This document shows positions 6,401 through 53,343 of a DNA stretch of 60,252 nt, piece by piece; position 1 is the stretch's first letter, and each line of letters begins with the position of its first letter. The notes under the pieces were generated by a model. The model ran no database searches. It was not told the DNA's origin and saw only the letters and a program-made list of their open reading frames with translations. A program made the translations under genes and the position numbers. The stretch covers positions 1-60,252 of the IMG/VR virus record IMGVR_UViG_3300021599_001627; one strand, written 5' to 3'. Source of the DNA: a virus (Duplodnaviria > Caudoviricetes).

Positions 6401-6626
6401 GTTTCCAGGCGCGGGATCTGGTGCAGTAGTTGGCTTGGCCAGCTAGGCGAAGACGGCGCAGAACACGGTCCACCAGGCGCGCCAGGGGTTCATACTCGAC
6501 GCCCTCGGGGGCGAGGCTGGCGATCGAGCGGGCGAGATGGGCGGTCTGGCCTTCACCGCGTGCGAGGTGCCAGCGCACTTGGTCTGCTGTCCAGTCTTCG
6601 AGCTCGGGGGAGAAGGTGTGGGGCAT
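6315..6626 (-). CDS. Hypothetical protein (possible winged helix)
   Basis: 103-aa ORF starting directly after the tRNA; its 3' end overlaps the HNH gene convergently. Confidence 0.55.
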
Positions 6627-6698
6627 GGGGGCCGCGAGGATCGAACTCGCCTTAGACCGATTATGAGTCGGCTGCTCTCACCAGATAGCTAGACCCCC
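6626..6698 (-). tRNA. tRNA with CAT anticodon (Ile2/lysidine type or elongator Met); CCA not encoded
   Basis: GGGGGTC TA GCTA TCTGGTGA GAGC A GCCGA CTCATAA TCGGT CTAAG GCGAG TTCGATC CTCGC GGCCCCC A folds as a cloverleaf. The paired 1:72 argues against initiator. Confidence 0.93.
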
Positions 6699-6731
6699 TG
6701 GTGTTGGAATTGGAAGCGGTTAAATATACAA

Positions 6732-8213
6732 TTAAATGTGGGCGAAGAACCCCGCAGTATTAGGGGACTCGGGGACGGCGCTGCAGGCGAAAGCCAACGC
6801 CATCACAGTATCGTCATGGGCCCCTGAGGCTGCTTCGCGGGATCCAGATTCCTTTTGCTGGAAAGCACGTAGCTCGTTGGGGATGGCGCCGTTGGGGAAG
6901 ATCAGCTCGTCTCGCTCCATGTAGTACAAGATGCGATCCGTTGCTACTACTTTACTGGGACGGCTAGTGCTGAACGTCTCGATAGCATAGTTAGGCAGGA
7001 TGTTGGCGAGCGCCTCTGCGATTACGGCTCCCATCGCCTGCTTCTCCACGATTACCCGCTCCGGTAGGTAATCCTCGATGAGGGACTTCACATGGCGCAA
7101 GCTGTAATCAGTGCTCTTGCCGTTCTCGTGGTACATGGCTACGACCTCGTAGGGCGTAGCAGTGATGTCCAGTACCAGAGCGGTGAAGTAATCGTTGCCC
7201 CCGGCGTTCGGGTCAATGCCGATCACGTAAGTGCGGCCGATCGAGCCGCACTCGCGCCAGTGGCCGCGGGTGGCACGGCGGATCAGGTCTGTTGGGTAGA
7301 TCTGGGTATCGGTCGCGCCGAAGGCCAGCTCGTATTCGCTGTCCCATGCGGCTTGGGTCATGCGGCGGGACTCGCGGGTCCGCTGCGCCCACTCCGGGTC
7401 AGCCCCGTAGATCGGATGCTGGCTGTAGTGGATCGCGACGCGGTTCCACGAGTCCTGCACTTCGGCCAGGGCCGTGTTCAGCTTGACGATCTCGCGGCGG
7501 CGGACGTGGTCGTACCAGTCGACCGGCGTGCCCTGGTGCCACAGCTGGCCGAACCAGTCGAGCTCGGTGTCGGGGGTCGAGGTGACGATCACCTTGGCCG
7601 CCTCGCCCACCATGGACAAGGTCGGCATGGCGCCCCGGTAGATCTCGGCGGCGCCGTCAAGGAAGGCGCCTTCGTCCATGAACAGAACGGAGCAGCTCGG
7701 GATGCCGCGGGCGGCGCGGGGTGAGGCGGGCAGGAAGTACAGCGTGCCGCGCCCCTCGATGGCGATCTGCGTGTTGCTGTCCGTCAGGTAACGGATCGAT
7801 TCGCCCTCGATGGAGTTGGCCATGGCGCGGACTCGGCGGCCGAGCTCGGAGGCGTCCTGTTGTGTCTTGGAGAAGATCACCGCGGCGAAACCGCGCTCGG
7901 TGAGGGCGCGGCACAGCAGGTAGGAGCAGACCGTCTCCGAGGCGCCCATCTGGCGCGACTTGTTGATGATCGTGTTCGGGTGCGCGTTGATGCTCTCGAC
8001 CAGCGCGATCTGGTACGCGTATGGGTCGAACGGCGCCACCGTGCCGGCCGTGCGGATCCAGGTGCGTCGTGCGAACGACGGCCAGTCGTCCACGCCCGGC
8101 AGCTTCGTTGGGGGTACGGCCGGGTCGAAGTTCGCGGCGCGTGCGGCGCGGCGGGCCAGTTCGAGGCGCAGGCGGTCGGCGCGGCGTTGCAGCTGCGAGA
8201 GGGAGGCGGTCAT
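6732..8213 (-). CDS. terL: Terminase large subunit
   Basis: Walker A-like KSRQMGASE, Walker B VLFMDE, VTSTP, nuclease motifs IGIDP and HDDTVMALA. Confidence 0.95.
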   Translation of the reverse strand: MTASLSQLQRRADRLRLELARRAARAANFDPAVPPTKLPGVDDWPSFARRTWIRTAGTVAPFDPYAYQIALVESINAHPNTIINKSRQMGASETVCSYLLCRALTERGFAAVIFSKTQQDASELGRRVRAMANSIEGESIRYLTDSNTQIAIEGRGTLYFLPASPRAARGIPSCSVLFMDEGAFLDGAAEIYRGAMPTLSMVGEAAKVIVTSTPDTELDWFGQLWHQGTPVDWYDHVRRREIVKLNTALAEVQDSWNRVAIHYSQHPIYGADPEWAQRTRESRRMTQAAWDSEYELAFGATDTQIYPTDLIRRATRGHWRECGSIGRTYVIGIDPNAGGNDYFTALVLDITATPYEVVAMYHENGKSTDYSLRHVKSLIEDYLPERVIVEKQAMGAVIAEALANILPNYAIETFSTSRPSKVVATDRILYYMERDELIFPNGAIPNELRAFQQKESGSREAASGAHDDTVMALAFACSAVPESPNTAGFFAHI

Positions 8214-20478: not shown

Positions 20479-20501
20479 AGCGTGTGCGGTTTCTGAATGG
20501 G

Positions 20502-20735
20502 TCAGCGGTGGCGCAAAGCGGGTGGGAGCTGGCGGTTGCGGCGCGTGAGTTCCATGCCGTAGGTCGCGGCTTGGTCGAGGTAGTAGCCCTCGCGGGAAGG
20601 GTTCCAGCCGCACATTCCGGCTGCAGCTTGCTTGCAGTCGGAGATGACGTAGCGCAGGGAGTAGGCGTCCAGGGCTTTGGCGTGAGCTTCCCAGCGGGCG
20701 AAGTCGCGCTCGGTGGCGTGGGTGGTGATCATCAC
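20502..20735 (-). CDS. Hypothetical protein
   Basis: SLRYVISDC..AA......EGYYLDQ..TY..EL.RR. Confidence 0.7.
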   Translation of the reverse strand: MMITTHATERDFARWEAHAKALDAYSLRYVISDCKQAAAGMCGWNPSREGYYLDQAATYGMELTRRNRQLPPALRHR

Positions 20736-20920
20736 TGCACCTCCACAACGCGGGCGCTGTTGCCATCGGCCACGATGGAATACCGCTCAGCCAATGCCTC
20801 AGCCTGGGCTGACGTGCAGTGTTCGGTGTAGGTGACCCACTGTTGGCTCACCGCGTGTTTGAGCTGAACCTCCCAATGGGGGCCAATCAGTGATCCGGGG
20901 GGATACCAGTTGCGTTTCAT
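20732..20920 (-). CDS. Hypothetical protein, first gene of the accessory operon
   Basis: MKRNWYPPG...; GTGA overlap with the next gene. Confidence 0.55.
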   Translation of the reverse strand: MKRNWYPPGSLIGPHWEVQLKHAVSQQWVTYTEHCTSAQAEALAERYSIVADGNSARVVEVQ

Positions 20921-20966
20921 GCTGAAACTCACAGCTAGAGGGATGGAGATGCAAAGCACCTCAGCC

Positions 20967-20997
20967 AAAAGACCCCCGGACGCAGCGCGCCAGGGGG
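20967..20997 (-). terminator. Intrinsic terminator ending the putative large ncRNA
   Basis: Minus strand CCCCCTGGCGC-GCT-GCGTCCGGGGG-TCTTTT (stem with one bulge, then U-tract). Confidence 0.7.
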
Positions 20998-21636
20998 AAC
21001 TTCTGGGGGAGATGGTTTGTGCGTGTTAGGCAGAGCCGAATGCCCATTGCCACGGTCAACACGCGGTGACCGTATGTGCAGAGCCGGGGTAAGCCGGGTT
21101 GCGTATTCCCATAGGTACAGCAAGACAGTCGCGCCCCTGTTCGCCGGGGTTGCGCTGTCAGCTTCACTGCCTGCCCACTAGACAGCTACTAGCTTCGAAG
21201 GGCTCAGAGCCCGCGCCTGCTAGTGCTCACCTAGGCCCGATGGCTCGGGCGTGGGCTCGGCATCATGCCGCTGCACCTATTCCCCCATACCATCCGGGTC
21301 GGTTAGGGCTGAACACCTATCCCTAGGTGCCCTCCTCTGAGAGGCCCGCACAAGGCGGGTCAGCTTGTCCCTCCGGCGAAGCCAGGATTCAGACGATACG
21401 TAGGCCAGACCGCAGGCAAATCGCCGCCCCTGGTACAGACCCCGGCCCTTACGGGCTCATTGTCCGATACGTCTTCCCTCCAAGCTGGGCAGGCTCACCC
21501 GATCACGGGCTCGACACTGCGCTCGGCACGGTTGTTGTTGGTAGGGCGGAGCACAGCTCCGCAACGAGTCATCACATAGGCAGTTCATGAATAGGACGCG
21601 CCGCCGGAGCGGCTGGCCCGACCCTTCCGGATCGGT
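20967..21636 (-). ncRNA. Putative large (~670 nt) structured non-coding RNA of unrecognised class
   Basis: No convincing ORF; upstream promoter and downstream terminator; more than 12 local hairpins plus several long-range complementary pairs (see findings). Confidence 0.7.
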
Positions 21637-21642
21637 GCACCT

Positions 21643-21673
21643 AACCTAGCACCACAGCTGCGCGATCCGTCAA
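21643..21673 (-). promoter_or_regulatory. Promoter TTGACG-N19-TAGGTT (with GGTGC extended -10)
   Basis: Same architecture recurs at 22455-22485. Confidence 0.65.
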
Positions 21674-21853
21674 GCGGACCGGCGGCAGAATCACGAAACC
21701 CGCACAAGGTGGGAAGCGTGATCGGCGCATGGGCGCAGCAAAGCTGCGGGACCCCATGGGCCTGGTGTTCGGTTGTCTAGGTGCGGTAGGGTGACAGCCC
21801 GGACGCCTTCCGCGACGGCATCGCCGTCCGGGTCGTTTCCGGTTGTCGTTGCC

Positions 21854-21881
21854 AACCTAGCACGGCCACCGGGCGGGGCAA
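21854..21881 (-). promoter_or_regulatory. Promoter candidate TTGCCC-N16-TAGGTT (GTGCTAGGTT)
   Basis: Shares GTGCTAGGTT with the 21643 site. Confidence 0.45.
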
Positions 21882-21904
21882 GCATCAGGCGGCTGTGTCT
21901 ATTG

Positions 21905-21960
21905 AGTCTCGGATTGAGACCTTTCGCGCGCGAAAGAGAATAGATGTCTCGTCGAGACTC
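21905..21960. repeat. Cluster of palindromes (GTCTC-N5-GAGAC, CTTTCGCGCGCGAAAG, GTCTC-N3-GAGAC)
   Basis: Seen directly in sequence. Confidence 0.7.
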
Positions 21961-22042
21961 ACGGGTCGCAGACTTGGACAGGCTGCAACGCAGTCAGTAC
22001 ACGTCCAGGACGCTATAAAAAATGTATGTATATGTATTGCTT

Positions 22043-22432
22043 TCAGCTTAGCCTGGCTTTAGTTACAAGCCCGTTAATAATGTCAGGAATACGCACTTTG
22101 CGCTCATCAGCCTGGGCTTGGAGCCATTCAAGGTTCTCTGGCGTAAAGCGGATCGAGCGTCTGTACTTGTGCTCGTCCTCTACGCGCTTTTCACCTCGCT
22201 CTCGGGCGACAGCTTGGCGAGACGCGATGCTCTGGTACTTCTCGACGGCGTCCGAGGTAAGGTCACCTTTCTCGATAGCAGCGCGCAAGCGCAACTGAAC
22301 GGCCTGTCGGCTGATGCCTAGGGTTTTGCCGACCTCGGTCCAGGTGACGAAACCGTCGCGAGCGTAAATCAAGTCGCAGACTGATAGCAGGCGATCCAGA
22401 GAGACTTGTGAGCGCTGGACAGGCGGGCGCAT
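22043..22432 (-). CDS. DNA-binding protein (HTH plus RHH-like C-terminus)
   Basis: TWTEVGKTLGISRQAVQLRL; RSIRFTPENLEWL...IPDIIN. Confidence 0.75.
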   Translation of the reverse strand: MRPPVQRSQVSLDRLLSVCDLIYARDGFVTWTEVGKTLGISRQAVQLRLRAAIEKGDLTSDAVEKYQSIASRQAVARERGEKRVEDEHKYRRSIRFTPENLEWLQAQADERKVRIPDIINGLVTKARLS

Positions 22433-22454
22433 TTAGGAGTGGATGAGGGTATTT

Positions 22455-22485
22455 AGCCTAGCACCGAAGCCCCTGCACTCGTCAA
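22455..22485 (-). promoter_or_regulatory. Promoter TTGACG-N19-TAGGCT
   Basis: Identical -35, spacer length and GGTGCTAGG to the 21643-21673 site. Confidence 0.65.
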
Positions 22486-22661
22486 CCCTCGCGCACGTCT
22501 TCCGCGCTCGGGGCTTGGTACAGCTCTTCGAGTTGGCGGATGAAGTCGGGTTCGGGGGTGACTTGTTCGACCATGATGCGCTCGATGCGTGGGCTAGAAG
22601 CCAGGAGCCGCAGCATCAGTAGTTCGTACCAGCGCAGGGGTACCAGGGGCTCTTTACTCAT
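22482..22661 (-). CDS. Hypothetical protein (59 aa)
   Basis: Translated by hand: [29 protein letters not shown]...[16 protein letters not shown]; ATGA overlap with the sigma gene. Confidence 0.6.
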
Positions 22662-23537: not shown

Positions 23538-23879
23538 TCAACCAGAACTGGATGGGGGAGGGTAAATGAGTGTTGAAGGCTCTGGGATATGGCGCGTAGC
23601 TGGGATGTCCTGCTGAGCGGGGAGCGCGTCGCCCGAGGGCGGATGGACCTCGGGGATGGGAACAGTGTCCGGGGCGTCGTACGGCAGCCAGCCGTTCTCG
23701 GGGTTCAAGTCTCGTGTGAGGTCTTCGCCGAGGTTCCACTGGGCGCGGATGATGTCTTCGAAGCACCGTTCGAGGAGCGGCGCATAGCCTGAGTACGTGA
23801 AGGCGCCGTCAGGGCCATCGTGTAGCTCCCAGCGGTAGTAGCCGTCCTCGGTGGAGCGGATGGTGATGAGGAGGGTCAA
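23538..23879 (-). CDS. Hypothetical protein
   Basis: [11 protein letters not shown]...YSG.A..L..CFE.I. Confidence 0.6.
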
Positions 23880-25546
23880 GGTGCAAGGCGGGCTTTGTGG
23901 AGACGAGTTGAGGCGTACCAGGCCGCGATGGCTGGTGACCAGGCTTCAAAGTGAGGCCAGATCAGATCGCACATCTGCTGGATTTCCTGCTGGGCGTCGC
24001 GCTTGGAACGCAGGTCCAGAAAATGCATCAGCGCTCGCAGCGAGAAGCTCACTACGAAGTGCTGGCGGATGGCGTAGGGGATGAGGTCGCGGGCATGCTC
24101 TTCTGACATGCCGCGGTCCAGGGCGAGCTTGAAGCGAGCGGCCGAGTCGATGCAGATGATGCGGTCGATCGTCCGCTGGTCCTGCGTGTACTCGTAGCTC
24201 TTACCGTTCCGGTCTCGGTAGGTGCCGACAGGGCGCAGGTAGAAGACTTCTTCCGCGTTTCGGGTGCCGTTGACCACGTCGATGATGCGCTGGCTCGTAT
24301 AGCGGCCAGAGTTGTGTACAACGATGCCATCAGCCACAAAGTTGTGATGCGGGGCCTCCATGGCGATGTCGTATGTCTGGACTGTCCCGGCCGGGCGGAT
24401 TGACAAAATGCGAACAGCATGAGCTGCCAGCCGATGACGGAGCTTGTGACAACGGGGGCACAAGACAACTATGTTGCTCGCGTTCGTTGCCAGATCAGGT
24501 CTTTCCAGTACCGGATAGACGTGGTGACAGTGCAATCTTGAATGAGGTTGTGCGCAATCTTGACAAAGGTGCCCAGCCTTTGCAAGAAGCGTTGGCCGAG
24601 CGTACTTCAACCAGTTGTAGGCGCGCTTCTCTATCGGAAGGTCATCCTTCCACGATGGATGTGACGGGCCTTGGTTGAGCTTCCCCTTTTGGAGGCTGGC
24701 AGCGTGGCGTCGGCGTCGGTCGCGCTCGGTTTCGCTGATGTCCAGTTTTTTACCTTCGTGGGAATAGGGGGGTCGTTTACGCCATGTTAGCCCGTAGTGA
24801 TAACTCCACTTTTTAACGGCTTCTGTAGAGACACCAGCAATCAATGCAACCTCCTTAGGTATTAGCCCCTTGGCGTAATGCCGCTCTAGCCACTCTTTGT
24901 TTTGATAAGTGGTGGGTGCTTTTGCGGTTGCCCTGCCATTCACCATCATAGTTTCACCTTCTTTCAGCTCACCAGCAGTCTTCCAGCCGCCTGGGGTCAA
25001 GACACGGTGCTCTGTTGTGCACCGCAAAACCTTGCCGTCAGCCAGGCTTAGTTCAAGAACTGGCTTGAGGCCACCATTGAAGACGGCAAATATGCGGTTG
25101 ACTACAAACTCGTTTCTTTCTTCGTCTAATGAGCGAAGCCTGAGGGCGCGGACCTTGCCTGGGTCCTCGTTCCAGAGAGCGGCAACCTTTTCAAGCGTTA
25201 CGGTTCCTGTCTTGATGCCATTTTTGTCAACAACGGTTATCTCGGAAGCCTGATCAAGACACTGCACGTCGAAGCTCACGCCGACCCGGTGGGTGCGGGC
25301 CTGCTGCATCACCGAGTGGGGGAACCAGCCCACGTTGAAGCTGATCTGCGGGTGCTCCAGGGGGCCGTAGTGGCCACGCTCGCCGGCGAGGAGGTGCTTG
25401 ACGACGATGGCGCCGCACTCGGCATCGGACGGGGGGTCCTCGTTGAAGACGAAGTTTTCGCTGTAGTCCTGGTGCATTGCCCACCAGATCAGCGTCTGGG
25501 GTGTTTCAGTCCGGGCGAGGACTTCGACCTTGAAATACGGGTCCAT
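23876..25546 (-). CDS. thyX: Flavin-dependent thymidylate synthase ThyX containing an intein
   Basis: GHYGPLEH, QARTHRVGVSFDVQ|SGRY, EEHARDLIP, FLDLRSKRDAQ.EI; start MDPYF at 25546. Confidence 0.93.
   Translation of the reverse strand: MDPYFKVEVLARTETPQTLIWWAMHQDYSENFVFNEDPPSDAECGAIVVKHLLAGERGHYGPLEHPQISFNVGWFPHSVMQQARTHRVGVSFDVQCLDQASEITVVDKNGIKTGTVTLEKVAALWNEDPGKVRALRLRSLDEERNEFVVNRIFAVFNGGLKPVLELSLADGKVLRCTTEHRVLTPGGWKTAGELKEGETMMVNGRATAKAPTTYQNKEWLERHYAKGLIPKEVALIAGVSTEAVKKWSYHYGLTWRKRPPYSHEGKKLDISETERDRRRRHAASLQKGKLNQGPSHPSWKDDLPIEKRAYNWLKYARPTLLAKAGHLCQDCAQPHSRLHCHHVYPVLERPDLATNASNIVVLCPRCHKLRHRLAAHAVRILSIRPAGTVQTYDIAMEAPHHNFVADGIVVHNSGRYTSQRIIDVVNGTRNAEEVFYLRPVGTYRDRNGKSYEYTQDQRTIDRIICIDSAARFKLALDRGMSEEHARDLIPYAIRQHFVVSFSLRALMHFLDLRSKRDAQQEIQQMCDLIWPHFEAWSPAIAAWYASTRLHKARLAP
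24311..25261 (-). mobile_element. Intein (317 aa) with HNH-type homing endonuclease
   Basis: Starts CLDQASEI; block B CTTEHRVLTPGGW; ends TYDIAM..PHHNFVADGIVVHN/S; internal CQDC..LHCHH..NIVVLCPRCH. Confidence 0.93.
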
Positions 25547-25782
25547 CAGCCTTTGCGGTACACGATTGGACGGGATGAGCACTCGATCTGTGCCACACGC
25601 CAGGTACGGCCCGCGGGATCGAGCAGCGTGTAATGCGGGAAGCCCAGCCAGAGCTCACCACTGACCACCTTGAAGGTCTCGTCGAAGCCACGACCTCGGA
25701 CGTAGACGCTGTTACCTAGGCGGAAGCGCCAGGGGTGGGTGAGGCGCTCTTCGAACTCGGGAACGTGAGGGTGCGGTGTCAT
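25546..25782 (-). CDS. Hypothetical protein
   Basis: ORF track; coupled overlaps. Confidence 0.65.
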   Translation of the reverse strand: MTPHPHVPEFEERLTHPWRFRLGNSVYVRGRGFDETFKVVSGELWLGFPHYTLLDPAGRTWRVAQIECSSRPIVYRKG

Positions 25783-33199: not shown

Positions 33200-35149
33200 A
33201 TGCCATCGCAATTTGTTGAGGACGCGATCCGCGCACTAGAGAGTCCGGACTACGACGTCATTTCCGGGCCTGCTCACGCGGGCCTGCTTAAGCGTCGTGT
33301 GCAGGAGATCGCAGATACCGCAGCACCTATCGGGGTTGACACCGAGACAACGGGTCTTGATCCGAGGGCGAACCAAGTCCGACTGATCCAGCTGGGAACT
33401 ACAGATTTTGCTCTGATTATTGATCTCGATGGTTGGCGTCGGGAAGGGTGCCGGGCAGTCCCGTGGGAGGTGGACGGGCTACGGCAGCTCAAGGCGCTCC
33501 TCGAAGGAGGATGCCGCAAAGTGCTGCAGAACGCAGCCTTTGACCTCAACTTCCTCAGGGGCGAGGGAGTCGTGCTCGGGGGGCCGATTTTCGACACCAT
33601 GGTTGCCGCCAAGATCATCAACAACGGCACCGGCAAGCCCAACGACCTCGGGGAGATCGTCAAGCGCAATCTGAAGTGGAGCATGCCGAAGGAGCTTCAG
33701 AAGTCCAACTGGTCAGGTGAGCTCACCGCTGAGCAGTTCGTGTACTCCGCGCGAGACACGATCTGTCTGACCCACTTGGCACCACTCTTGCAGGCGAAGT
33801 TGGCTGCTGACATCGTCCGCGGGGACTACACCCTTTGGGACCTGTTCCAGCTGGAGATGCGCGTGCTGCGGCCCATCGCGTTGATGCAGTGGCACGGGTT
33901 CGGCTTCGATCGGCCGGCTGCAGAGGAGCTGCGGGTTTCGCTGACCGAGGAGTCCGAGGCGCTCAAGACCCTTTTCCTGGAGCATCTGGACCAGGAGATT
34001 CGCAACAACTCGCCGGACGACCCGAACTCGTGGTTGCCCCGCGATCCGGACGGAAGCATCAACACCAGGGAGAAGGACAGTGGCTATAAGCGGCTGGGCA
34101 CAAAACTTTACAAAGGCTTCAACCCGAGATCAGCCCAGCAAATGGCGCAGGGGTTCAAGAAGGCCGGCATCCTGCTGCCGGTTGACGAAAAGGGCACCCC
34201 GAGCCTGGACCAGAACCTGTTGGCGTTCCTCCGCAACGACTACGAGTTGATTGATCAATATCTGACGTGGAAAACAGCGATCACCAAGGTATCAAATATT
34301 GAGAAACTGCTTGAATCTATTGGGCCGGACGGACGTATCCACTGCAACTACAGGCAGATGGGCACCGAAACGGGCCGTTTGAGCGCGGCATCACCCAACC
34401 TGCAACAAGTCAATCGTGGAGCGGATTTTCGCAGCAAGTTCGTTGCACTTCCGGGGTATCTGCTGATTGTTGCTGACTTCTCTCAGGTAGAGCTTCGCGT
34501 CGCTGCTGAGCTCTCGGGGGAGCAACGGATGGTCGACGCTTATTTGGCTGGACGTGACTTGCATACGGAGACCGCTTCGTTGATCGCAAAGGTGGGTCTT
34601 GATGAGGTTACTAAGTCACAACGTACCAGTGCTAAAATGGCAAACTTCGGATTGCTATTTGGGGCGGGTCCAGCAACGCTACAAAAGCAAGCCGTCGCTC
34701 AGTACGGCATTGATATGAGTATGGAGGAGGCTAGGGAGATTGTCGAAGGCTTTCGTGAGGCTTATCCCACTCTCTATAAGTGGCAACAAGATCGGGGGTC
34801 GAGGACAACGCCTGCAGTTCACACCGCTCTCGGGCGGCGGCGCATGCTGGTGGGGTTTAATGATAAATACACTACTCGCATCAATACGCAAGTTCAGGGA
34901 ACGGCTGGTGATATTGCTAAAATCGCTATTGCAAAGTTGTGGAATTCACTCGTAAAAGCACCTGCGGATGAAGCGCGCCTCATCGCTATGGTCCACGATG
35001 AAATCGTGCTCGAAGTCAAGGAAGGTCACGAGGAGCACTGGGCGGCGCTGCTGAAGGCATCGATGGAGTCTGCAGGGTCGGAGATTTGTAAAAAGGTGCC
35101 GATCCTTGCTGAGGTGTCGTGGGGGCCGACCTGGGCTGATGCGAAATGA
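33200..35149 (+). CDS. polA: DNA polymerase family A (3'-5' exonuclease plus polymerase)
   Basis: VDTETTGL, QNAAFD, TETGRLS..SPNLQQ, ADFSQVELR, AKMANFGLLFG, VQGTAGD, VHDEIV. Confidence 0.96.
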   Translation: MPSQFVEDAIRALESPDYDVISGPAHAGLLKRRVQEIADTAAPIGVDTETTGLDPRANQVRLIQLGTTDFALIIDLDGWRREGCRAVPWEVDGLRQLKALLEGGCRKVLQNAAFDLNFLRGEGVVLGGPIFDTMVAAKIINNGTGKPNDLGEIVKRNLKWSMPKELQKSNWSGELTAEQFVYSARDTICLTHLAPLLQAKLAADIVRGDYTLWDLFQLEMRVLRPIALMQWHGFGFDRPAAEELRVSLTEESEALKTLFLEHLDQEIRNNSPDDPNSWLPRDPDGSINTREKDSGYKRLGTKLYKGFNPRSAQQMAQGFKKAGILLPVDEKGTPSLDQNLLAFLRNDYELIDQYLTWKTAITKVSNIEKLLESIGPDGRIHCNYRQMGTETGRLSAASPNLQQVNRGADFRSKFVALPGYLLIVADFSQVELRVAAELSGEQRMVDAYLAGRDLHTETASLIAKVGLDEVTKSQRTSAKMANFGLLFGAGPATLQKQAVAQYGIDMSMEEAREIVEGFREAYPTLYKWQQDRGSRTTPAVHTALGRRRMLVGFNDKYTTRINTQVQGTAGDIAKIAIAKLWNSLVKAPADEARLIAMVHDEIVLEVKEGHEEHWAALLKASMESAGSEICKKVPILAEVSWGPTWADAK

Positions 35150-37978: not shown

Positions 37979-39124
37979 ATGGCCAGCTCCAAGCCGAAGG
38001 GGTACACCAACAACTGGTTGGGGGTGCTGGCAGCGGCGAAGGACGCCGGGGCGAAGTTCCCCGAGCTCGTGGCGGCTCAGTGGGCACTGGAGAGCGGCTT
38101 CGGTCAGCACACCAGCGGTGAGTACAACTACTTCGGGCTCAAGGGCAGCGGCACGACTCGGCTCACGACTGAGTACGTCAACGGGGCACGGGTGCATATC
38201 GAGGCGGAGTTCATGGACTTCGCCGACCTCGGGGAGTGCGTGCGGTACCTCGTAACCCGCTGGTACAAGGACTGGGACCAGTACGAGGGGGTCAACCGGG
38301 CACCGACGCGGGCGGCGGCGGCGAAGGAGCTGGTCAAGCAGGGCTACGCCACAGACCCGCGCTACGCAGAGAAGCTGATCAAGCTCATGGACGAGCACCT
38401 ACCGGAGGTGGGCGAGCCGACGGTGGTGACGAAGGCCAAGCCGAAGGCGCTGCTGTTCCAGATCGAGGCGCACCAGGCCACCTGGCTTAAGAAGGAGCCG
38501 AAGCCGGCCACCGAGCTCGGGGATTCCGAGAAGGTTGCCGTGGTGAAGGGCAAGACCTATGGGGTATGCGCGTATAACGAAAGTGTTCAAGACGCTCACG
38601 CGAAGGTTGAGCTGGCTGCGGGGGCCGGGACTTGGTATGTGTATGAGCCGCACTGGTCGAAGGTGCAGGCCAGCGGCGAGGCGATGCCGGCCTCGGTGGA
38701 TTGGGCGGACTTCGGGTGTCTGGTTACGCCGAACCTGACGGTGGGTGAGGTGCTGCAGTGGGATAAGCGCCGGATTCCGGGACCGAACTCGTCGGTGCGA
38801 GCGCGCCTGCTGCGCACTGCCGCGGCGTTCCAGCAGGTTCGCGAGGCGTGGGGGCAGCCGCTGGGAGTGACCAGTTTTTACCGGCCGGAGCCGATCAACG
38901 GTCAGGTTGGTGGGGTGCCGGGCTCGCGCCACACCACGGGCGAGGCGATGGACATCTATCCGACGAACCGGAGCATGGAGGAGTTCTACCGGTGGATCCG
39001 AGCGCGGTGGAGCGGTGGGCTCGGGGATGGCCGCGCTCGGGGGTTCATTCACCTGGACACCCGCGGGGGTGGAGGATTTGTACCGGGTGCGGGGGCTGCG
39101 CCTGCGGCGGAGTGGCTGTACTGA
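37979..39124 (+). CDS. Endolysin: GH73 glucosaminidase-like domain plus peptidase M15 domain
   Basis: AAQWALESGFG..NYFGLKG..GYATDPRY..KL; VTSFYRP..N..VGG..GSRH..G.A.D..GFIHLD. Confidence 0.92.
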   Translation: MASSKPKGYTNNWLGVLAAAKDAGAKFPELVAAQWALESGFGQHTSGEYNYFGLKGSGTTRLTTEYVNGARVHIEAEFMDFADLGECVRYLVTRWYKDWDQYEGVNRAPTRAAAAKELVKQGYATDPRYAEKLIKLMDEHLPEVGEPTVVTKAKPKALLFQIEAHQATWLKKEPKPATELGDSEKVAVVKGKTYGVCAYNESVQDAHAKVELAAGAGTWYVYEPHWSKVQASGEAMPASVDWADFGCLVTPNLTVGEVLQWDKRRIPGPNSSVRARLLRTAAAFQQVREAWGQPLGVTSFYRPEPINGQVGGVPGSRHTTGEAMDIYPTNRSMEEFYRWIRARWSGGLGDGRARGFIHLDTRGGGGFVPGAGAAPAAEWLY

Positions 39125-39532
39125 TCAGCTGATCGTCAGGGCGCCGTTGGTGCCGTCGAAGTCGATTGTGAAGGTTTCGCCTGAGGCGAGGGTGACGTTC
39201 GAGCCGTAGTCGTACCAGCCCAAAAGTTCCTGGCTAGGGGCGGTGCTGTTGTAGAGGGTGATATAGCGGAATGTTGCTACAGCGCCGGAAGCAGTGAGTA
39301 CTAGGTCTTGGAGTACGAGCTTGTAGATACCAGACGTTTGCCCAGAGCTAATGGTAGTAATGTTGCAGCTGCTTAGGTTGGTGTAGCTGATTTGCGTGAT
39401 ATTACTAAGTGTCGAGTTGGTGGCGACTGGAGCTGTCGCGCTCAGGGCCACAGCGAGTTGATCAGCACCGAGATCGTGTTTTTTCTCAGCGAGGGCTTCA
39501 ACCAGAGAGTTGAAGCGGTTAAAGATGGCCAT
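39125..39532 (-). CDS. Putative virion structural protein
   Basis: FRY..LYN.T....L.GWYDYG..VTL..GETFTIDF; tail region. Confidence 0.7.
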   Translation of the reverse strand: MAIFNRFNSLVEALAEKKHDLGADQLAVALSATAPVATNSTLSNITQISYTNLSSCNITTISSGQTSGIYKLVLQDLVLTASGAVATFRYITLYNSTAPSQELLGWYDYGSNVTLASGETFTIDFDGTNGALTIS

Positions 39533-39655
39533 TTATGGGTAGCCCTGGGTTTAGCGGTAGTCTAAGAAGCCCAGCCTGAGAGCTACATAGCTACTACTTA
39601 TGCGGGGCTCTAGTTGGTTACAGCGTCTTGGATCTGCTGGCCAGTGGTGGCTCCT

Positions 39656-39934
39656 TTAGCTCTTCCACGCCCCGCTGGCGCGGGTGCTGATGCTGCTCAC
39701 TGACTTCCACACGCCGCTGACCTTGACGTAGGCGGCGCTGGCTTGTTTCCAAGTGCCGGCAACATTCACCCAGACGTTGAGGCCCGTAGCAGGGCCAACC
39801 GCAACAAACGGCTGGCCTAGATACGCCACATCGAGGGATGTGGTTGTGAGTGCCTTGGCCTCAACCTGAACAAAAGGCTGGCCGAGGTAGGCAACGTCTA
39901 GCGATGTCAGATCGGTATTACTCGGCAGGGGCAT
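39656..39934 (-). CDS. Tail-fibre-associated protein with internal repeats
   Basis: SLDVAYLGQPFV twice; three xxGxWK repeats. Confidence 0.7.
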   Translation of the reverse strand: MPLPSNTDLTSLDVAYLGQPFVQVEAKALTTTSLDVAYLGQPFVAVGPATGLNVWVNVAGTWKQASAAYVKVSGVWKSVSSISTRASGAWKS

Positions 39935-40100
39935 TGGCTACCTCCTGTGCGGCGACAAAGGCTGCTGCTGCCTCCTGAATGGCATCCATGGTTGGGTAGT
40001 CGTTGAACTTGAAGAACTGCGCTTCAGTATTGGTGAGCACGACACGGGCGTACCACTTGCCAGCGAGGTCCTGTTCAACAGCATGGACGTGATAGGTCAT
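39918..40100 (-). CDS. Small tail-region protein
   Basis: ORF track; operon context. Confidence 0.6.
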   Translation of the reverse strand: MTYHVHAVEQDLAGKWYARVVLTNTEAQFFKFNDYPTMDAIQEAAAAFVAAQEVANAPAE

Positions 40101-40102
40101 GG

Positions 40103-42550
40103 TCAGGCTTGCGAGATGGTTAGGTCATCGACCCACCCAGAGAAGGTGGTGCCGCCAAAAGCTTCAGCAGTAATTTCAACTACGCCGGTTTCAGTCGGGG
40201 TGAAGGTGACAGTTTCCTCTTCCCAGGCGTTGACAGCAACTACCGATGATGTTACGTTATTGACAACCCCAGCGATCTGACCGCCTTTGCAGACTAGGCG
40301 CATTGTCAGGCCAGCATTATCGCGTCGCATCCATGCTTTGACGGTTACCAGGGAATTGGCAGCGCAGGCGACTTTGGCAAGACTAAGTGTTACCGGCCAG
40401 TTTGCACTACGCTCGGTGTTGGTCGGTTGAATCTTCCAGCTAATTCCATTATTGGTATTGCGTTGATCCGTAGCGGAACTGACTATGGCACCGTGCATAA
40501 ATATTCTGTGACTATTAGCTGTTTGGTTATCATTTTGAGATGTTACTAAGTAATCCGAATATGAACCAAAGCCTGTAACTGGAGTAGGCGAATTCAGAGC
40601 GACGTCTTTGAGATATTGGAAGCCCGACTGACCAGTATATATATCGGAGGTAGGATTATCTTTGAAAATCAAGCTGGAAATATATGCAGTTCCAGAGGAC
40701 AGGTTGAGCCCGTAGCTGCCGTTATTTGCAAATAAAATTGACGAATTAGCCCCTTTTACATAAGCTATATTTCCGCTAATGAACATGGCGCTGAAATTAC
40801 TAACAAAGGCACCGCTTACGGTAACATTTGGACGTAGTCCCGATATACTCGGGCCACCCGCTGAGACTATAAAGCCAATATTATAAGTGCCGTAGCTAAC
40901 TTGACTTGTAAAGATGGCACTGTTTGTTGAATTATTCGACGCAATAATATCATAAACAATCCAAGAGCCAATATTTGAGCTTATATTGTTATTAAATCGA
41001 GTAAGGGCAAATCCTTGTATTACCATCCAGTTTCTGCTGTCCGCTACTATTCCGTTTCCATTGCCATTCACGCCATCAAGCCAGGTTTCAGAAGTTTTAG
41101 TACTCATATCTGTTCGATTCCAGCCGCCGCTATAAGTCGTAGGACTACCTTCAACGCCACTTTCTAATAAAGATATAACCGCTGTACTTGCCGATGCCGA
41201 GGGTCCAATTTTAATTGTTTCTCTTTTCCATGTTGTTATCGTTTCGCTAATGCCATAGTATCCACGCAATGAAGAAATGCTGGGTATAATATTTGTCTCA
41301 GCATCCAGCATGACGCGAGTACCATTAATACTTTGAATGCCCCAAAATGTTTCAGTTGCCGTATTCTTGCCAATTAAGCTAGTAAGCGTCAGGCTATCGT
41401 CAGCACTACTGGCTTTGCAGGCGATAATATTGGATAACAGGAAAGTTTGCGCACCATTATCAGTATTGACATAAAGTGCGATACTTTGAATGTTGCTGCC
41501 TAGATTTGTGTTCAAATTTACTGTTACTGGCATCCAACGTCCTATGGCAGCCAGGCTTGGGACACTAATAGTATTAACGGCTGTCGTGCCAGTCGTATCT
41601 GAGCATAAACGTAAATCAATAGCACCAGCCGCTCCAATAGTGCCGCCAGTTTGTTGTATCCAAAAACTTACTTGTTGATAGCCAGACAAATCAAGAGTGC
41701 CTGTCGCCCAGAAAGCTGCACGACCTGTTGTAAAGCCTGCAGCAATGGTAATCTGGTCGCTTCGGGCGTGTTCTTTTGTATTAACGGTATTTAGTGAAGC
41801 GGTGACGTTGGCCCCACCCGCCGAAGTCCATGCCGCACGGCCAGGACCAGTACTAGCGATATTTGCGGTAACGGCACTGGTCAAGAGAACGCGCATATTG
41901 TTACACAGTCGCGCTGTACCACTACTGCCTACACCATTTCCTGCGCTGCCGGTAAGTGTAAATGTGTTTACACCGGTATTGGTTATCTCCCAGGTACCGT
42001 TAGCGTTGGTATTTGTTAAATGCCCAGTGATTACAATAGTGTCACCTGTGCTATAGCCGTGCGCGTTGCATGTAACTGAAATTGGCGTAGTATTAGTGCT
42101 GCTGCTAATGGCTTTTGCCGCCTGCTGAATTTGACTTGTCCATACGCCATTTTGACCTAAACTTGTTGGATCTGGACTTGCTATTACGCGAATAGTATCA
42201 CCTGGTATTGTCCTTACTAGCGTGGCACCACTCGCAAAGGTTCTCCAGCGACCACCAATATAGTATTGACGATCTATGGATTGGTTCGCCAGTCCCGTGC
42301 CTCCAGATATTGCAGCAATCGTAAGCGAAGTAGAAGATACCCAGGCTCCAATTCGGTAAACCGCATAAATTGCGCCATTAAAAATACTTAGGTACTGGCC
42401 AATCAGAGATCCGTCGTTTGGAAATGACGCTCCGACACTACTGAATGTCGTACTGGTGATGCGACCATTTGTTCCTTGCGCTAGCGGTGCAAAACTGGTA
42501 CCAGCATAATTATCATTACCGTTCTCGAAATCGATGTACAGAGTAGCCAT
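40103..42550 (-). CDS. Tail fibre/spike or receptor-binding protein (lower GC)
   Basis: 815 aa, T/S/G/N-rich, beta-rich appearance. Confidence 0.7.
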   Translation of the reverse strand: MATLYIDFENGNDNYAGTSFAPLAQGTNGRITSTTFSSVGASFPNDGSLIGQYLSIFNGAIYAVYRIGAWVSSTSLTIAAISGGTGLANQSIDRQYYIGGRWRTFASGATLVRTIPGDTIRVIASPDPTSLGQNGVWTSQIQQAAKAISSSTNTTPISVTCNAHGYSTGDTIVITGHLTNTNANGTWEITNTGVNTFTLTGSAGNGVGSSGTARLCNNMRVLLTSAVTANIASTGPGRAAWTSAGGANVTASLNTVNTKEHARSDQITIAAGFTTGRAAFWATGTLDLSGYQQVSFWIQQTGGTIGAAGAIDLRLCSDTTGTTAVNTISVPSLAAIGRWMPVTVNLNTNLGSNIQSIALYVNTDNGAQTFLLSNIIACKASSADDSLTLTSLIGKNTATETFWGIQSINGTRVMLDAETNIIPSISSLRGYYGISETITTWKRETIKIGPSASASTAVISLLESGVEGSPTTYSGGWNRTDMSTKTSETWLDGVNGNGNGIVADSRNWMVIQGFALTRFNNNISSNIGSWIVYDIIASNNSTNSAIFTSQVSYGTYNIGFIVSAGGPSISGLRPNVTVSGAFVSNFSAMFISGNIAYVKGANSSILFANNGSYGLNLSSGTAYISSLIFKDNPTSDIYTGQSGFQYLKDVALNSPTPVTGFGSYSDYLVTSQNDNQTANSHRIFMHGAIVSSATDQRNTNNGISWKIQPTNTERSANWPVTLSLAKVACAANSLVTVKAWMRRDNAGLTMRLVCKGGQIAGVVNNVTSSVVAVNAWEEETVTFTPTETGVVEITAEAFGGTTFSGWVDDLTISQA

Positions 42551-42558
42551 GCTTTACC

Positions 42559-42768
42559 TCAGGCGGTGTACTTGATCCAAATGTCGCCGTCGATCCCACC
42601 AGTGGGATCGGTAGTACTGGTAGTGATGTTGTTGATCTTCACCATGCTGCCAGCTGCATTCTTCACGTACAACCGACCATTGGTTGAGTCCCAAGCTGGT
42701 TCACCTTCAACAAACGATACTGCGCTCGGTACTGTGCTACCGCGCCGTAACCTCAGCGTGTTAGCCAT
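42559..42768 (-). CDS. Short tail-fibre-like protein
   Basis: MANTLRLRRG...GEPAW.....LY...PTGG.DGDIWIKY. Confidence 0.65.
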   Translation of the reverse strand: MANTLRLRRGSTVPSAVSFVEGEPAWDSTNGRLYVKNAAGSMVKINNITTSTTDPTGGIDGDIWIKYTA

Positions 42769-42770
42769 GT

Positions 42771-43616
42771 TCAGAACGTCCCGCAATCCACGGTGATACC
42801 ATCAAACGTGGTGAGGTTTGTGATTGACCCACCTGTAATTGTGACGTTTATGGCGTCTTGCGTGCTAAGGGTACCCAACCCACTGATGTCCGTGTTGGGG
42901 ATAGTGGCACTCGCTGTCAGCGCTGCAGTGCCGGACCCTTTGACGTAGCCCGTCAAGCTGGTGGCACCCGTTCCCCCATAGGCCACGGAAATTGCCGTGC
43001 CCTGCCACACACCGGTGCCAATGGTGCCAACGCTGGTGAGGCTGGAGCTGGTGACCCCACTGCCCAAAGTGCTGCCGCTGAGCACGCTGGTGCCGTTGAT
43101 GTAGAACGCCTTACCGCTAGCAAGATTCAGGTGCTCGCTGCTAGTCCAGGCATCCGTGGCATCAACCCAGTTGAAGGTCTTATCCGTGGTGCCCTTGAGC
43201 GTAATGCCACCGCCATCCGCACCGGCATCAGTGGGACTAGCAGTGTCCCCAAGAACAATGTTTTTATCGTCAACTGTGATCGTGGTTGAGTTGATCGTTG
43301 TCGTCGTGCCGTTTACAGTCAGATCACCACCGACAGTGATATTGCCTGTAGTGCTGAACGAAGCGATGGTGGCACTACTGAGATCAACGGTGCCGGTAAA
43401 CGTCTTATTGCCGCTGATTGTCTGCGATGTGTCCAGCGTGATGTAGGCGCCGCTGCCGCCGATGGCAACAACACTGGTGGCTGAGCCCCCTGCTCCCCCG
43501 GTTCCAACGCCAATGAACAGCTTGGAGCTGTTCTCCGAATAGGCCAGCTCTGCATTGGCCAGCGTTGAAGGCGCTGCCGTAGCGGTTGAGCGTTTGATTC
43601 TGATCGTGTTCGGCAC
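42771..43616 (-). CDS. Tail fibre-like structural protein
   Basis: IRIKRS..AP..L..AELAY, GDLTVNGTTTTINST...VDDKNI, GGTGAT, VDCGTF. Confidence 0.8.
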   Translation of the reverse strand: MPNTIRIKRSTATAAPSTLANAELAYSENSSKLFIGVGTGGAGGSATSVVAIGGSGAYITLDTSQTISGNKTFTGTVDLSSATIASFSTTGNITVGGDLTVNGTTTTINSTTITVDDKNIVLGDTASPTDAGADGGGITLKGTTDKTFNWVDATDAWTSSEHLNLASGKAFYINGTSVLSGSTLGSGVTSSSLTSVGTIGTGVWQGTAISVAYGGTGATSLTGYVKGSGTAALTASATIPNTDISGLGTLSTQDAINVTITGGSITNLTTFDGITVDCGTF

Positions 43617-51570: not shown

Positions 51571-53343
51571 TCACACTAGGTCAGTTGTGTATAAGTTGTA
51601 TTGATAAGTACTGGACGCATCTACACTTGTTCTTGAAAAATAAAAAGGCACTACTGGCCTTAAGGTGGATGCACCATTCATAGTCACTTTTCCTACTGGC
51701 GAATAATACGTTGTTAACGGTGTATTCCGCGAAAATCCCTGAGCTGATGCCGTGTAGATATTTGTCGCTAGCGTTGTGTAGCCACCAACTTTTGAAGCTC
51801 TCCCGCCAAAAGCCTGAAAGACTGGGTAAGTGCCTGTGTTGATATAGGCATTATTAGAGAATGCGTTTCTTGAGGCGACAACCCTGTTAGTGGGAAGATG
51901 ATAGCCGCGATCAGAATGCCAGCCATATGAATCGTTGGACACAAAATTTGTATTGCTTCCGGCGATTATATTCTCAGTGATAAGCGTAGAGAGATCAAAG
52001 CTATATTTGGAAGACTTCATCGAAGCGTTTGGCTGCGGGTAGGATCCGTTGGAGTAAAGATAAATTCCGTCATCTAGAATGGCAATTTCCTTGACAATTG
52101 GTTGCGCTATTGCGGTTTGACTAATGAAGTTTCCAGATTTATCAAAATAGAAAAGCCATTCAGGTGTGGCGACAAGGCACCCAGTCCCGTATCGAACGAC
52201 GGCAACGCCCGACCCGTTTGCGTTGTACCTATCAAAACTATTGGATATTGGTACAAAATCTTCGTCTAAGCGAATGACTAGAAGATATGCGGCTCTTTTG
52301 TCGAATAGTAACGATGTACCATCGTCGAATTGAATAAAAGCCGAAGAATTGGCCGTCCAAACGCTAAGGTAATACAGTCCACCATAGCTGATGTTCCACG
52401 ATGTTACTAAAGTTCCTGTGTTTGCGTTGACGATATCGTAAGTTAAATACCCAAGCTCATGTCGAACCATCATGATGTATTTCTGAAGTCGAATATATTC
52501 CATGCCGATTGTATGGCCCTGCGTAACGGTATTACCAGGTATGCCCATGCCCAGCTTAAATTCTCCGTTTGTGTCGTACACAGCGAACTTATCGTGCCCG
52601 TAGCCAAAGTACGAAGGAAGAAAACAAACAATGCTTTCTTTGTTGTTTCCTATGTCACAAATCAATGTTTCATCAATGTAATCACCAAGTGGTTGCGTAG
52701 TTTGAAAGATATCATTAAAAGCATGCTCCTTTGTCCATATAACTTCCCCGTTAAGCCTTCGCTTTGTTATTGCAAACTTCTCAGTGGTTGTTGACATTAG
52801 GCTATAAGAATTGCCCATCGCGTCTGTGACCAGGCTCGATGATGTAACGGCACCTACGAAATTGGGATTGTACAGCCAAGGGGCGTTAGCGAATGGGGCT
52901 GTCATTACTGACACCCAGAAATCGGTTCCAATGTCTCCGTAATCACCTTCGCATAATATGTCTGATTGGCATGATGCAAGAGCAGGGCTAAGAGTTGGAA
53001 TGTATAGTTCAAATACGCGACGAAAACTTGCACTTAAACGATAGGTAATAGGGTTGTCTTGCTCTATCGTCCACTCATCACAGCGAAAACGAAGCGCAGT
53101 CACCGAATCAGGTGGCTGCCATTCAAACCATTCGCCTGCATCGGCGCGGGCCTGAAGAAAGGTTTCTACTTCTTGTACTGCTTCTAGCTCCAGTAGCCAA
53201 GTTAGGTCCCACTCCGACCTCGGGGTATTAAGACCGAATACCAACGAGGACTCGTATCCATCACCGAGGGCAGTTGTGATGCGTTCCTGATCAGAGCGCT
53301 TACTCGCTGGATAGGTCGGGTTAATCGCGGGAAATGTCGCCAT
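51571..53343 (-). CDS. gpM-like minor tail domain fused to a ~450-aa low-GC extension
   Basis: MATFPAINP.Y, GDGYE....FGLN, FEWQPP, CDEW, A.FRRVFE, then an unrelated AT-richer region. Confidence 0.8.
   Translation of the reverse strand: MATFPAINPTYPASKRSDQERITTALGDGYESSLVFGLNTPRSEWDLTWLLELEAVQEVETFLQARADAGEWFEWQPPDSVTALRFRCDEWTIEQDNPITYRLSASFRRVFELYIPTLSPALASCQSDILCEGDYGDIGTDFWVSVMTAPFANAPWLYNPNFVGAVTSSSLVTDAMGNSYSLMSTTTEKFAITKRRLNGEVIWTKEHAFNDIFQTTQPLGDYIDETLICDIGNNKESIVCFLPSYFGYGHDKFAVYDTNGEFKLGMGIPGNTVTQGHTIGMEYIRLQKYIMMVRHELGYLTYDIVNANTGTLVTSWNISYGGLYYLSVWTANSSAFIQFDDGTSLLFDKRAAYLLVIRLDEDFVPISNSFDRYNANGSGVAVVRYGTGCLVATPEWLFYFDKSGNFISQTAIAQPIVKEIAILDDGIYLYSNGSYPQPNASMKSSKYSFDLSTLITENIIAGSNTNFVSNDSYGWHSDRGYHLPTNRVVASRNAFSNNAYINTGTYPVFQAFGGRASKVGGYTTLATNIYTASAQGFSRNTPLTTYYSPVGKVTMNGASTLRPVVPFYFSRTSVDASSTYQYNLYTTDLV

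Follow-up and report, generated by a model that had tools for sequence, protein, structure and literature searches.

A conserved, covarying multi-domain RNA fold between tandem promoters and the next start codon in a phage genome

The window analyzed here is a linear IMG/VR virus record of 60,252 nucleotides (nt) (IMGVR_UViG_3300021599_001627), estimated to be 86% complete, with most of its genes on the minus strand. On that strand, a gene for a 129-amino acid (aa) helix-turn-helix (HTH) protein (22043-22432) is separated from the ATG (20920-20918) of a 62-aa gene without a family match (20732..20920) by a block of about 1.1 kb that is poor in open reading frames (ORFs; 20921-22042). A first-pass annotation, made from the sequence alone, had proposed that 20967-21636 encodes a new large structured RNA of about 670 nt with its own promoter and terminator. 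We find that the block contains, behind conserved promoters of predicted sigma-70 type, a conserved, covarying, non-coding multi-domain fold of the minus strand which ends in a hairpin/U-tract module that reaches the next AUG. The interpretation of the first-pass annotation is supported and its observations are confirmed in part, whereas the tertiary pairings that it listed are not. Of the four tests that it had named as able to refute its proposal (covariation, energy relative to shuffles, a discrete transcript and an Rfam hit), none did so.

Non-coding character and spread of the block

The paucity of ORFs is real: no minus-strand ORF inside the block exceeds 68 aa, and the GC skew is 0.003 in 21001-22000 compared to 0.1-0.25 in the flanks; the block, however, extends over about 1.1 kb rather than the 670 nt initially delineated. 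An ORF-poor gap of about 0.9-1.8 kb is kept at the same place in all 13 related loci examined. Stop-free stretches of 76-137 codons occur on both strands and could be taken for remnants of a hidden or decayed protein-coding gene, but the open frames change frame and position between homologues, and no ORF is conserved. Among RNAs of the window's type (hereinafter type A), the substitutions are even across the three codon phases (for example, 62/52/57 and 64/67/64), without 3-base periodicity, and close relatives differ by 1-base indels. Given also that the GC skew is unlike that of any flanking gene, the probability of a protein-coding gene at this site appears to be negligible.

Related loci (denoted L and a number) were collected by several searches. 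The neighboring sigma factor, used as a query on viral contigs, yielded 80 loci, and a pattern based on the terminator described below yielded 50 loci on viral contigs; two motifs from the RNA body recovered 9 viral loci each, adding one new contig. A scan of metagenomes with an 18-mer returned 30 loci (8 true homologues and 22 chance matches), and a 17-mer scan of viral contigs, with a pattern outside the terminator core, returned 48, including 4 fortuitous matches to coding DNA. Blastn of the gap identified full-length relatives in L003 and L004 (92.6% identity), sequences 95-96% identical over 21786-20967 in L005 and L006, and 9 more loci that share only the last 43-107 nt at 83-92%, with L012 adding a weak 331-nt match. 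Likewise, a profile of the window-type RNA matches the body in 9 of 51 sequences and only the last ~90-150 positions in the others. The 3' module was detected by nhmmer in none of the distant sigma relatives (L020-L081), and blastn of 20900-22100 against 50,697 phage records gave no match. Among 185,579 species-representative genomes, the terminator pattern has one match, on a 3.4-kb contig (L132) binned in a Myxococcota metagenome-assembled genome; this contig carries the phage RNA near-identically (profile score of 877, compared to 893 for the window) and is probably a mis-binned phage fragment. We considered and rejected an attP copy or a host-gene origin, the lone genome match being this short contig that carries the phage RNA itself.

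In L006 (located on the same contig as L104), identity is 95% over 21786-20918 as opposed to 70-82% in the aligned flanking segments, and in L005 the block of high identity continues into the downstream genes; part of the conservation therefore reflects mosaic exchange.

A multi-domain fold supported by covariation

The type A alignment (A1) consists of 15 distinct sequences covering 21549-20912. RNAalifold predicted 126 pairs, 23 of these with compensatory change, and addition of a pseudoknot brought the structure to 131 pairs in 23 helices. Of the alignment cells, 98.4% are paired, compared to 38-47% when the structure is slid. Covariation, which the first-pass annotation had named as the real test of its proposal, is evident across these 15 sequences: 24 of the 131 pairs show a double change, against 0-3 in six slid versions and 14.5±2.0 in 500 shuffles (none of which reaches the observed number), and the covariation score is 0.180 as against 0.03-0.05 when slid. 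At least 12 pair positions are mostly G-U; read from the opposite strand, these conserved pairs would become A-C mismatches, which fixes the minus strand as the RNA strand.

The structured core, that is, the type A body, starts at CAACAACC and spans 21075..21537 on the minus strand, as delineated from the alignment, the RNAalifold structure, the pair counts and metatranscriptome contigs. Three covarying long-range helices each close a domain: 21527-21524 with 21384-21381, 21376-21361 with 21311-21294, and 21279-21270 with 21121-21112. Exactly within these domains, hairpin tips are lengthened, swapped or deleted, and the indels in type A relatives are confined to such tips.

Ten local hairpins had been listed on the basis of the window alone, and five of these belong to the consensus supported by covariation (CGGCA/TGCCG, GCCCGA/TCGGGC, GGGCT/AGCCC, GACAG...CTGTC and ACGGTCA/TGACCGT). 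The other five are variable: CCCGC, CCTC and CACCTA lie within an insert that is absent from some homologues, L096 and L135 have a longer hairpin in place of GCCC-GTAA-GGGC, and the GCGGAGC hairpin is missing in 3 of 6 close relatives. The proposed long-range pairings fared worse, in that none of the four examined covaries. Pairing of 21486-94 with 21169-77 is kept at 95%, without any double change. That of 21481-87 with 21361-67 reaches 73% and is lost in the divergent sequences, and that of 21439-47 with 21082-90 is disrupted in as many as 8 of the 15 sequences. The crossed, pseudoknot-like pair is 85-93% paired without covariation, and the fifth pairing listed, 21589-95 with 21276-82, falls outside the part of the RNA that could be aligned. 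As for the folding energy, z is -3.1 with 20 shuffles and -2.3 with 60, and no shuffle in either set folds as well, but three coding controls of equal length score about the same (-2.7, -1.8 and -0.3), so that this measure is uninformative. The absolute energy, -306 kcal/mol compared to -238 to -271 for the coding controls, is presumably low due to the balanced G and C content.

The shared 3' module and its two states

The last ~105 nt of the RNA (21021-20918) comprise a terminator and translation-start module that is common to about 50 phage contigs, with conservation spanning CACAAACC to the AUG and stopping there. The putative terminator at 20997-20967, consisting of the GC-rich hairpin CCCCCUGGCGCGCUGCGUCCGGGGG and the U-tract UCUUUU, was correctly placed in the first-pass annotation; it is kept, nearly invariant, in all 39 distinct copies of the module (alignment A2), and transcripts would be expected to terminate here.

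The terminator core (20997-20973), followed by the U-tract (20972-20967), is part of an extended hairpin of 27 base pairs (bp) at 20952..21019 on the minus strand, which we denote state S1; in A2, 98.6% of the S1 cells are paired and 6 pairs are double-changed, as against 0-2 when slid. In the alternative state S2, the hairpin GAGGUGC-UUU-GCAUCUC (20946..20962, minus strand), which includes the Shine-Dalgarno-like GAGGUG at 20962-20957, replaces the lower 10 pairs of S1; here, 98.5% of the cells are paired and 6 pairs are double-changed, 3 pairs of the GAGGUGC-UUU-GCAUCUC hairpin changing on both sides. GAGGUG (columns 169-174) thus has two mutually exclusive partners, an upstream CAUCUC (columns 117-122) and a downstream CAUCUC (columns 180-185), and because changes at columns 170 and 173 are matched in both partners, both helices appear to be under selection. 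For the read-through RNA, S1 is the fold of lowest energy, and S2 forms when the RNA starts after the U-tract; the 17-bp terminator stem is kept in both. The 27-pair hairpin fits what is expected of an RNase III site (at least some 20 bp, interrupted by internal loops and located between parts of a transcript). Its apex, GGCGYRCUGCGUC, is nearly invariant even in L017, a distant locus that has two diverged modules, and in two members recovered with a pattern located outside the apex, and this near-invariance suggests sequence-specific recognition. GAGGUG is located 36 nt upstream of the AUG and has no start codon within reach. A further small hairpin, GCUG...CAGC (20935-20921; feature 20918..20935, minus strand), abuts the AUG (20920-18) of the first downstream gene; in L095, L124 and L152, GCUG/CAGC is changed to GCAG/CUGC, as judged by eye.

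Directly upstream of the terminator hairpin is an H-type pseudoknot (21021..21073, minus strand). Its stem P1 joins 21073-21067 to 21058-21052, the loop of this stem (21064-21059) pairs with 21026-21021, and a nested hairpin P2 (21046-21027) displays the conserved loop GGCUC. The pseudoknot is present in 21 of the 39 distinct modules; in these 21 sequences, 97.5% of the cells are paired and 7 of 19 pairs are double-changed, compared to 0-1 when slid, with two of the covarying pairs in the pseudoknot helix itself. A tRNA-like reading of this region (pseudoknot, P2 and ACCA) was dropped, given that ARAGORN and Rfam are silent and the loop UUC is not conserved.

Two variants of the module deserve mention. 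L017, with a sigma factor 43% identical to that of the window, has its two diverged copies at 6718-6775 and 7227-7330, each before a gene, and one of them has a proper Shine-Dalgarno sequence, GUGAGG, 8 nt before the AUG. An insert of ~64 nt that repeats CACAAACCAUCUC and adds a hairpin lies between pseudoknot and terminator in L101 and L176 (A1 columns 607-670) and in L083 (columns 553-616 of the type B alignment A3, introduced below), loci that differ in body type; part of the module seems to have been duplicated there.

Promoters and the variable 5' part

The motif TTGAC-N-GTGCTAGGyT has only 3 matches in the 60 kb of the window; all of them are minus-strand sites inside 22485-21643. The promoter that the first-pass annotation had assigned to the RNA, TTGACG-N19-TAGGTT at 21673-21643 on the minus strand (hereinafter promoter P2), is indeed present, albeit below the threshold of a consensus scan: it was found by the motif search, carries an extended -10 element (TGC), and retains its -35 and extended -10 in relatives even where the flanks diverge. 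A transcript from P2 would start near 21636. Promoter P1 (CTTGCC-N17-TAGGTT; 21882-21854, minus strand), recognized by a direct repeat of the -10 block and by motif search, stands 211 nt upstream of P2 and has an extended -10, GTGCTAGGTT, and a weaker -35.

This arrangement recurs in 20 of 21 representative related loci, where 1-4 tandem promoters lie upstream of the 3' module, 90-125 nt apart where there are several, the last one some 500-960 nt ahead of the terminator. A separate short structured unit follows each of the earlier promoters, and these units may be small RNAs in their own right. In L083, L086, L087, L095, L097, L106 and others, the first unit is a GC hairpin with a U-run a few bases after the start (CACGCGCGCACAUCAUGCGCGUUU), and the second consists of ~95 nt with GGAGCCUAGGCC...GCUCCCC, upstream of the last promoter. 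In the window, the hairpin CCCAC-CUUGU-GCGGG followed by UUU (21696..21713, minus strand), which is conserved in close relatives, is a possible end of a short transcript from promoter P1.

The 5' part of the RNA (21538..21636, minus strand) is poorly conserved among type A homologues. It includes the hairpin GCGGAGC-UGU-GCUCCGC (21546-21562) and a start-stop motif, AUGUGA (21572-21577), which in the window is preceded by an earlier ATG. A mini-ORF of 2-3 codons with a varying stop (TAA, TAG or TGA) begins at the first ATG in 25 of the 31 distinct leaders. These mini-ORFs, located 20-100 nt after the last promoter, are a start-stop or contain a single sense codon (ATG-[NNN]-TAA/TAG/TGA); the sense codon and the stop vary and the length is kept, and no Shine-Dalgarno sequence precedes them (window 21572-21577; L083, L086, L087, L091-L097, L102, L103, L105, L106, L111, L112, L115-L119, L121, L124, L125 and L127).

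Farther upstream, an AT-rich block, ATACATATACATACATTTTTT (22017..22037, minus strand), lies directly 3' of the HTH gene and is nearly conserved, with some substitutions, in 12 aligned intergenic regions. Between this block and promoter P1, the sequence contains two inverted repeats on GAGAC/GTCTC (21946-21960 and 21904-21921; span 21904..21960, minus strand); GTCTC repeats occur upstream of promoters in other loci as well. These repeats are operator-like and might be bound by a protein. Reading the region as a repeat array was abandoned as no direct-repeat family has more than 3 copies.

Exchangeable bodies ahead of a small gene

The bodies upstream of the 3' module belong to at least six or seven types that are unrelated by blastn and are all found at one position, flanked by promoters of one kind and by the module. 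Type B, the sole other type put through covariation counts, was aligned in 11 sequences (A3) and yields 158 predicted pairs, with 97.6% of the cells paired and 31 pairs double-changed, compared to 8.0±2.3 in shuffles and 2-8 when slid. The first genes downstream are similarly diverse: they encode about 10 protein families, nearly all of 41-107 aa (one of 227 aa), shuffled among the body types. With a 3' module that extends up to the next AUG, the RNA doubles as the leader of the operon that follows rather than being a free-standing gene, and it represents one of several bodies that can take each other's place.

Expression

Of the sampled 20500-22500 words, 78-100% occur in each of 15 DNA runs (9 studies), which with one exception are labeled freshwater or lake; 3 of these runs are possibly the source sample. 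In 4 of 4 metatranscriptome runs (4 studies), contigs fall only within the RNA body, at 21005-21537 (together with 191 nt of an L096-type leader), at 21095-21504 (with a variable hairpin swapped), and at 21226-21381 and 21288-21477. The RNA runs gave no contig on 20500-20968 or 21640-22500, which, with contigs, is not evidence of absence. The discrete transcript anticipated in the first-pass annotation, with ends near 21636 and 20967, gains weak support from the confinement of these contigs to 21005-21537, but contigs show no ends; with respect to expression of the body, they are suggestive only.

Relation to known RNAs

In agreement with the first-pass annotation, which could not place the RNA in a known class, the Rfam scan of the window at gathering thresholds shows no match at the RNA. 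A relaxed search of 20600-22200 (E up to 10) returned 3 weak matches (E 5.7-8.7), all far below the gathering scores, and a search of 14 related loci (51.9 kb) at E up to 0.1 returned nothing; ARAGORN and the Rfam models give no tRNA or tmRNA call in 20900-22100. We found no published description of this RNA at the level of titles and abstract openings, which is not proof that it is unpublished.

GOLLD and ROOL are large ornate RNAs that are often borne by phages (bioRxiv 10.1101/2024.12.08.627333). The scale proposed by comparison with these RNAs holds for the present one with respect to size and the many covarying helices (131 pairs, 23 helices), and scale is as far as the likeness goes. GOLLD and ROOL are 500-800 nt in length, fold into many covarying helices and, in phage genomes, usually adjoin tRNA genes; their function is unknown. 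The RNA described here shares with them the size class, the abundance of covarying helices and the phage setting, but it has no covariance-model match to either, no tRNA neighbor (the nearest is ~14 kb away), and is an operon leader behind tandem promoters that ends in a module shared with unrelated bodies.

Other systems resemble the layout rather than the fold. In the early region of phage T7, the host promoters A1-A3 stand in tandem, and a long untranslated leader and the RNase III site R0.3 precede the first gene; here, too, several tandem promoters (about 100-125 nt apart) and a long leader precede a long imperfect hairpin ahead of the first small gene. In contrast to T7, the hairpin also bears a U-tract and its cleavage is only a proposal, and the T7 leader is not known to form a conserved multi-domain fold. 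The lambda PR'-tR' 6S RNA, HK022 put and Bacillus EAR are terminated leader RNAs or antitermination elements of 65-200 nt, which have in common with the present RNA a constitutive promoter, a structured nascent RNA with a structured element directly upstream of the terminator, and a terminator gating an operon; the present RNA, at 670 nt, is far longer and has no Rfam match to antitermination RNAs. The P4 CI and P1/P7 C4 immunity RNAs are cut from the leader of the operon that they control. The resemblance is that of an operon-leader RNA in which one segment is complementary to upstream and downstream segments of the same transcript; unlike in those RNAs, the complementary segments here are only 6-7 nt long and lie in local helices, and there is no Rfam C4 match. 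Finally, STAB-SD of Bacillus thuringiensis cryIIIA is a Shine-Dalgarno-like mRNA stabilizer far upstream of the start codon. GAGGUG, 36 nt before the AUG, would similarly lie near the 5' end of the processed mRNA, but it is paired in both predicted states, and ribosome binding is putative.

Interpretation and alternatives

We consider it moderately likely that the block is a promoter cluster followed by a structured leader RNA of an uncultured freshwater siphovirus, an RNA that would be abundant and early and whose terminator would act as a gate; its early expression is suggested by the layout of the region. Under this scheme, promoters P1 and P2 would fire early and strongly, and most transcripts would stop at the U-tract, giving a stable RNA of ~0.67 kb. 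A minority would read through, whereupon the CAUCUC/GAGGUG pairing would lengthen the terminator stem to 27 bp (S1); the resulting duplex would then be cut, as RNase III does on T7 early RNA, and the freed mRNA end would refold into the GAGGUG hairpin (S2), shielding the end and setting the translation of the downstream small genes. The invariant unpaired blocks, the first expression in the transcription unit and the cassette exchange suggest that the body has a job of its own; that it acts in trans on a host or defense factor is a guess.

Several observations weigh against this interpretation or limit its support. A simple consensus promoter scan lists none of the promoters, P2 included, because TAGGTT shares only 3 of 6 positions with TATAAT, and a simple terminator scan does not list 20997-20967, probably because of the internal mismatch in the stem. 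The near-invariance of the terminator core, which precludes covariation, is in part due to a search pattern that fixes the core, and the second pattern outside it added only 2 new module members. The pair counts are inflated because structures and counts come from the same alignments, in which many rows are closely related, an objection that the slid control answers only partly; the z-score does not set the region apart because the coding controls score alike. Furthermore, the module is not a classical terminator/antiterminator switch, because both alternative helices leave the terminator stem intact. The metatranscriptome contigs show neither strand nor ends nor level and could include DNA carry-over; no two of them end at the same place, and one stops at 21005. 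When the family-A DNA polymerase (33200-35149) was used as a tblastn query, no relative exceeded 30% identity (Pseudanabaena phages came closest, at 29%), so that no cultured relative or host could be named from it. The early timing, the efficiency of termination, the cutting by RNase III and the function in trans are all inferred.

The tandem promoters, the GTCTC/GAGAC repeats, the mosaic boundaries at 21786 and 20918 and z-scores no better than those of the coding controls would all fit a DNA-level element alone, a promoter/operator array and recombination hot spot in which the pairings are a by-product of high GC content. This is very improbable in view of the 24, 31, 7 and 6 compensatory pairs in four alignments, far above the slid controls, the many conserved G-U pairs, which turn into A-C mismatches on the opposite strand, and the restriction of indels to hairpin tips. 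A stand-alone, trans-acting giant RNA of the GOLLD/ROOL sort, with an efficient terminator, downstream genes expressed in some other way and a merely incidental position ahead of the operon, would account for the size and multi-domain covarying fold, the own promoter, hairpin and U-tract, the coverage of the body alone by RNA contigs and the cassette-like exchange between phages. However, no covariance model of GOLLD, ROOL or any other Rfam family matches, the nearest tRNA gene is 14 kb off, and the 46-nt gap between terminator and AUG has no promoter motif and is crossed by continuous conservation; we regard this possibility as rather improbable.

Conversely, the RNA could be a leader that acts purely in cis, a 0.6-kb sensor/attenuator or protein-binding fold that sets termination and translation of the next gene, with no functional free RNA. 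The module runs unbroken to the next AUG whatever gene comes next, GAGGUG has two exclusive covarying partners, which is a hallmark of regulated leaders, a pseudoknot directly precedes the terminator, and the apex GGCGYRCUGCGUC is near-invariant, like a binding site. In riboswitches, however, the sensor is conserved and the expression platform is variable; here the situation is the opposite, with a conserved platform and unrelated bodies, there is no competition between the alternative helices and the terminator stem, and the RNA contigs fall on the body and none on the downstream gene, although this last argument is weak. A purely cis-acting leader is accordingly possible but, in our assessment, unlikely.

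Beyond the early leader RNA with a terminator gate that we favor, a broader and still doubtful proposal is that these phages carry an RNA-gene slot, in which a fixed frame of tandem promoters, mini-ORF leader and 3' terminator/processing module accommodates at least 6-7 unrelated, trans-acting giant RNAs. Were this so, each RNA would be made first and in bulk, as a decoy, a sponge or an RNA-only assembly against a host or defense factor, and an arms race would diversify the kinds of RNA, which phages would exchange among themselves as they do protein anti-defense genes. To our knowledge, very few bacterial or phage RNAs longer than 500 nt have conserved complex folds, and almost none of these has a known function. 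The context here is unusually clear, with defined promoters, a shared 3' module with two covariation-supported states and at least one further covarying body in the slot, which makes testable the role of giant phage RNAs, the coupling of a terminated RNA to the genes behind it and the cassette exchange of RNA genes.

Genome setting

The window encodes a portal protein, tail proteins, a primase-polymerase, a family-A DNA polymerase, an intein-bearing ThyX and a sigma-70 family protein, and shows no sign of lysogeny among those looked for. The top NCBIfam match of the sigma factor is a cyanobacterial RpoD-like model, with a score below the cut-off, which is only a hint of a cyanobacterial host. 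The sole tRNA gene of the window according to the Rfam gathering scan and ARAGORN, for tRNA-Met, is at 6626-6698, ~14 kb from the RNA.

Another of the 3 motif matches is a promoter ahead of the HTH gene (TTGACG-N19-TAGGCT with a TGC extension; 22455..22485, minus strand). It lies just past the 3' end of a 59-aa ORF (22482-22661) located after the sigma gene and shares only the stop codon with this ORF; because of this position, the sigma and HTH genes may belong to separate transcription units. The gene for the thymidylate synthase ThyX (23876-25582, minus strand) is split by an intein with an HNH endonuclease domain. The GC content falls to 0.44-0.50 at 39001-43000 and 52001-53000, compared to ~0.6 elsewhere in the window; one of these stretches spans an 815-aa ORF (40103-42550) without a Pfam match, and both may be acquired DNA.

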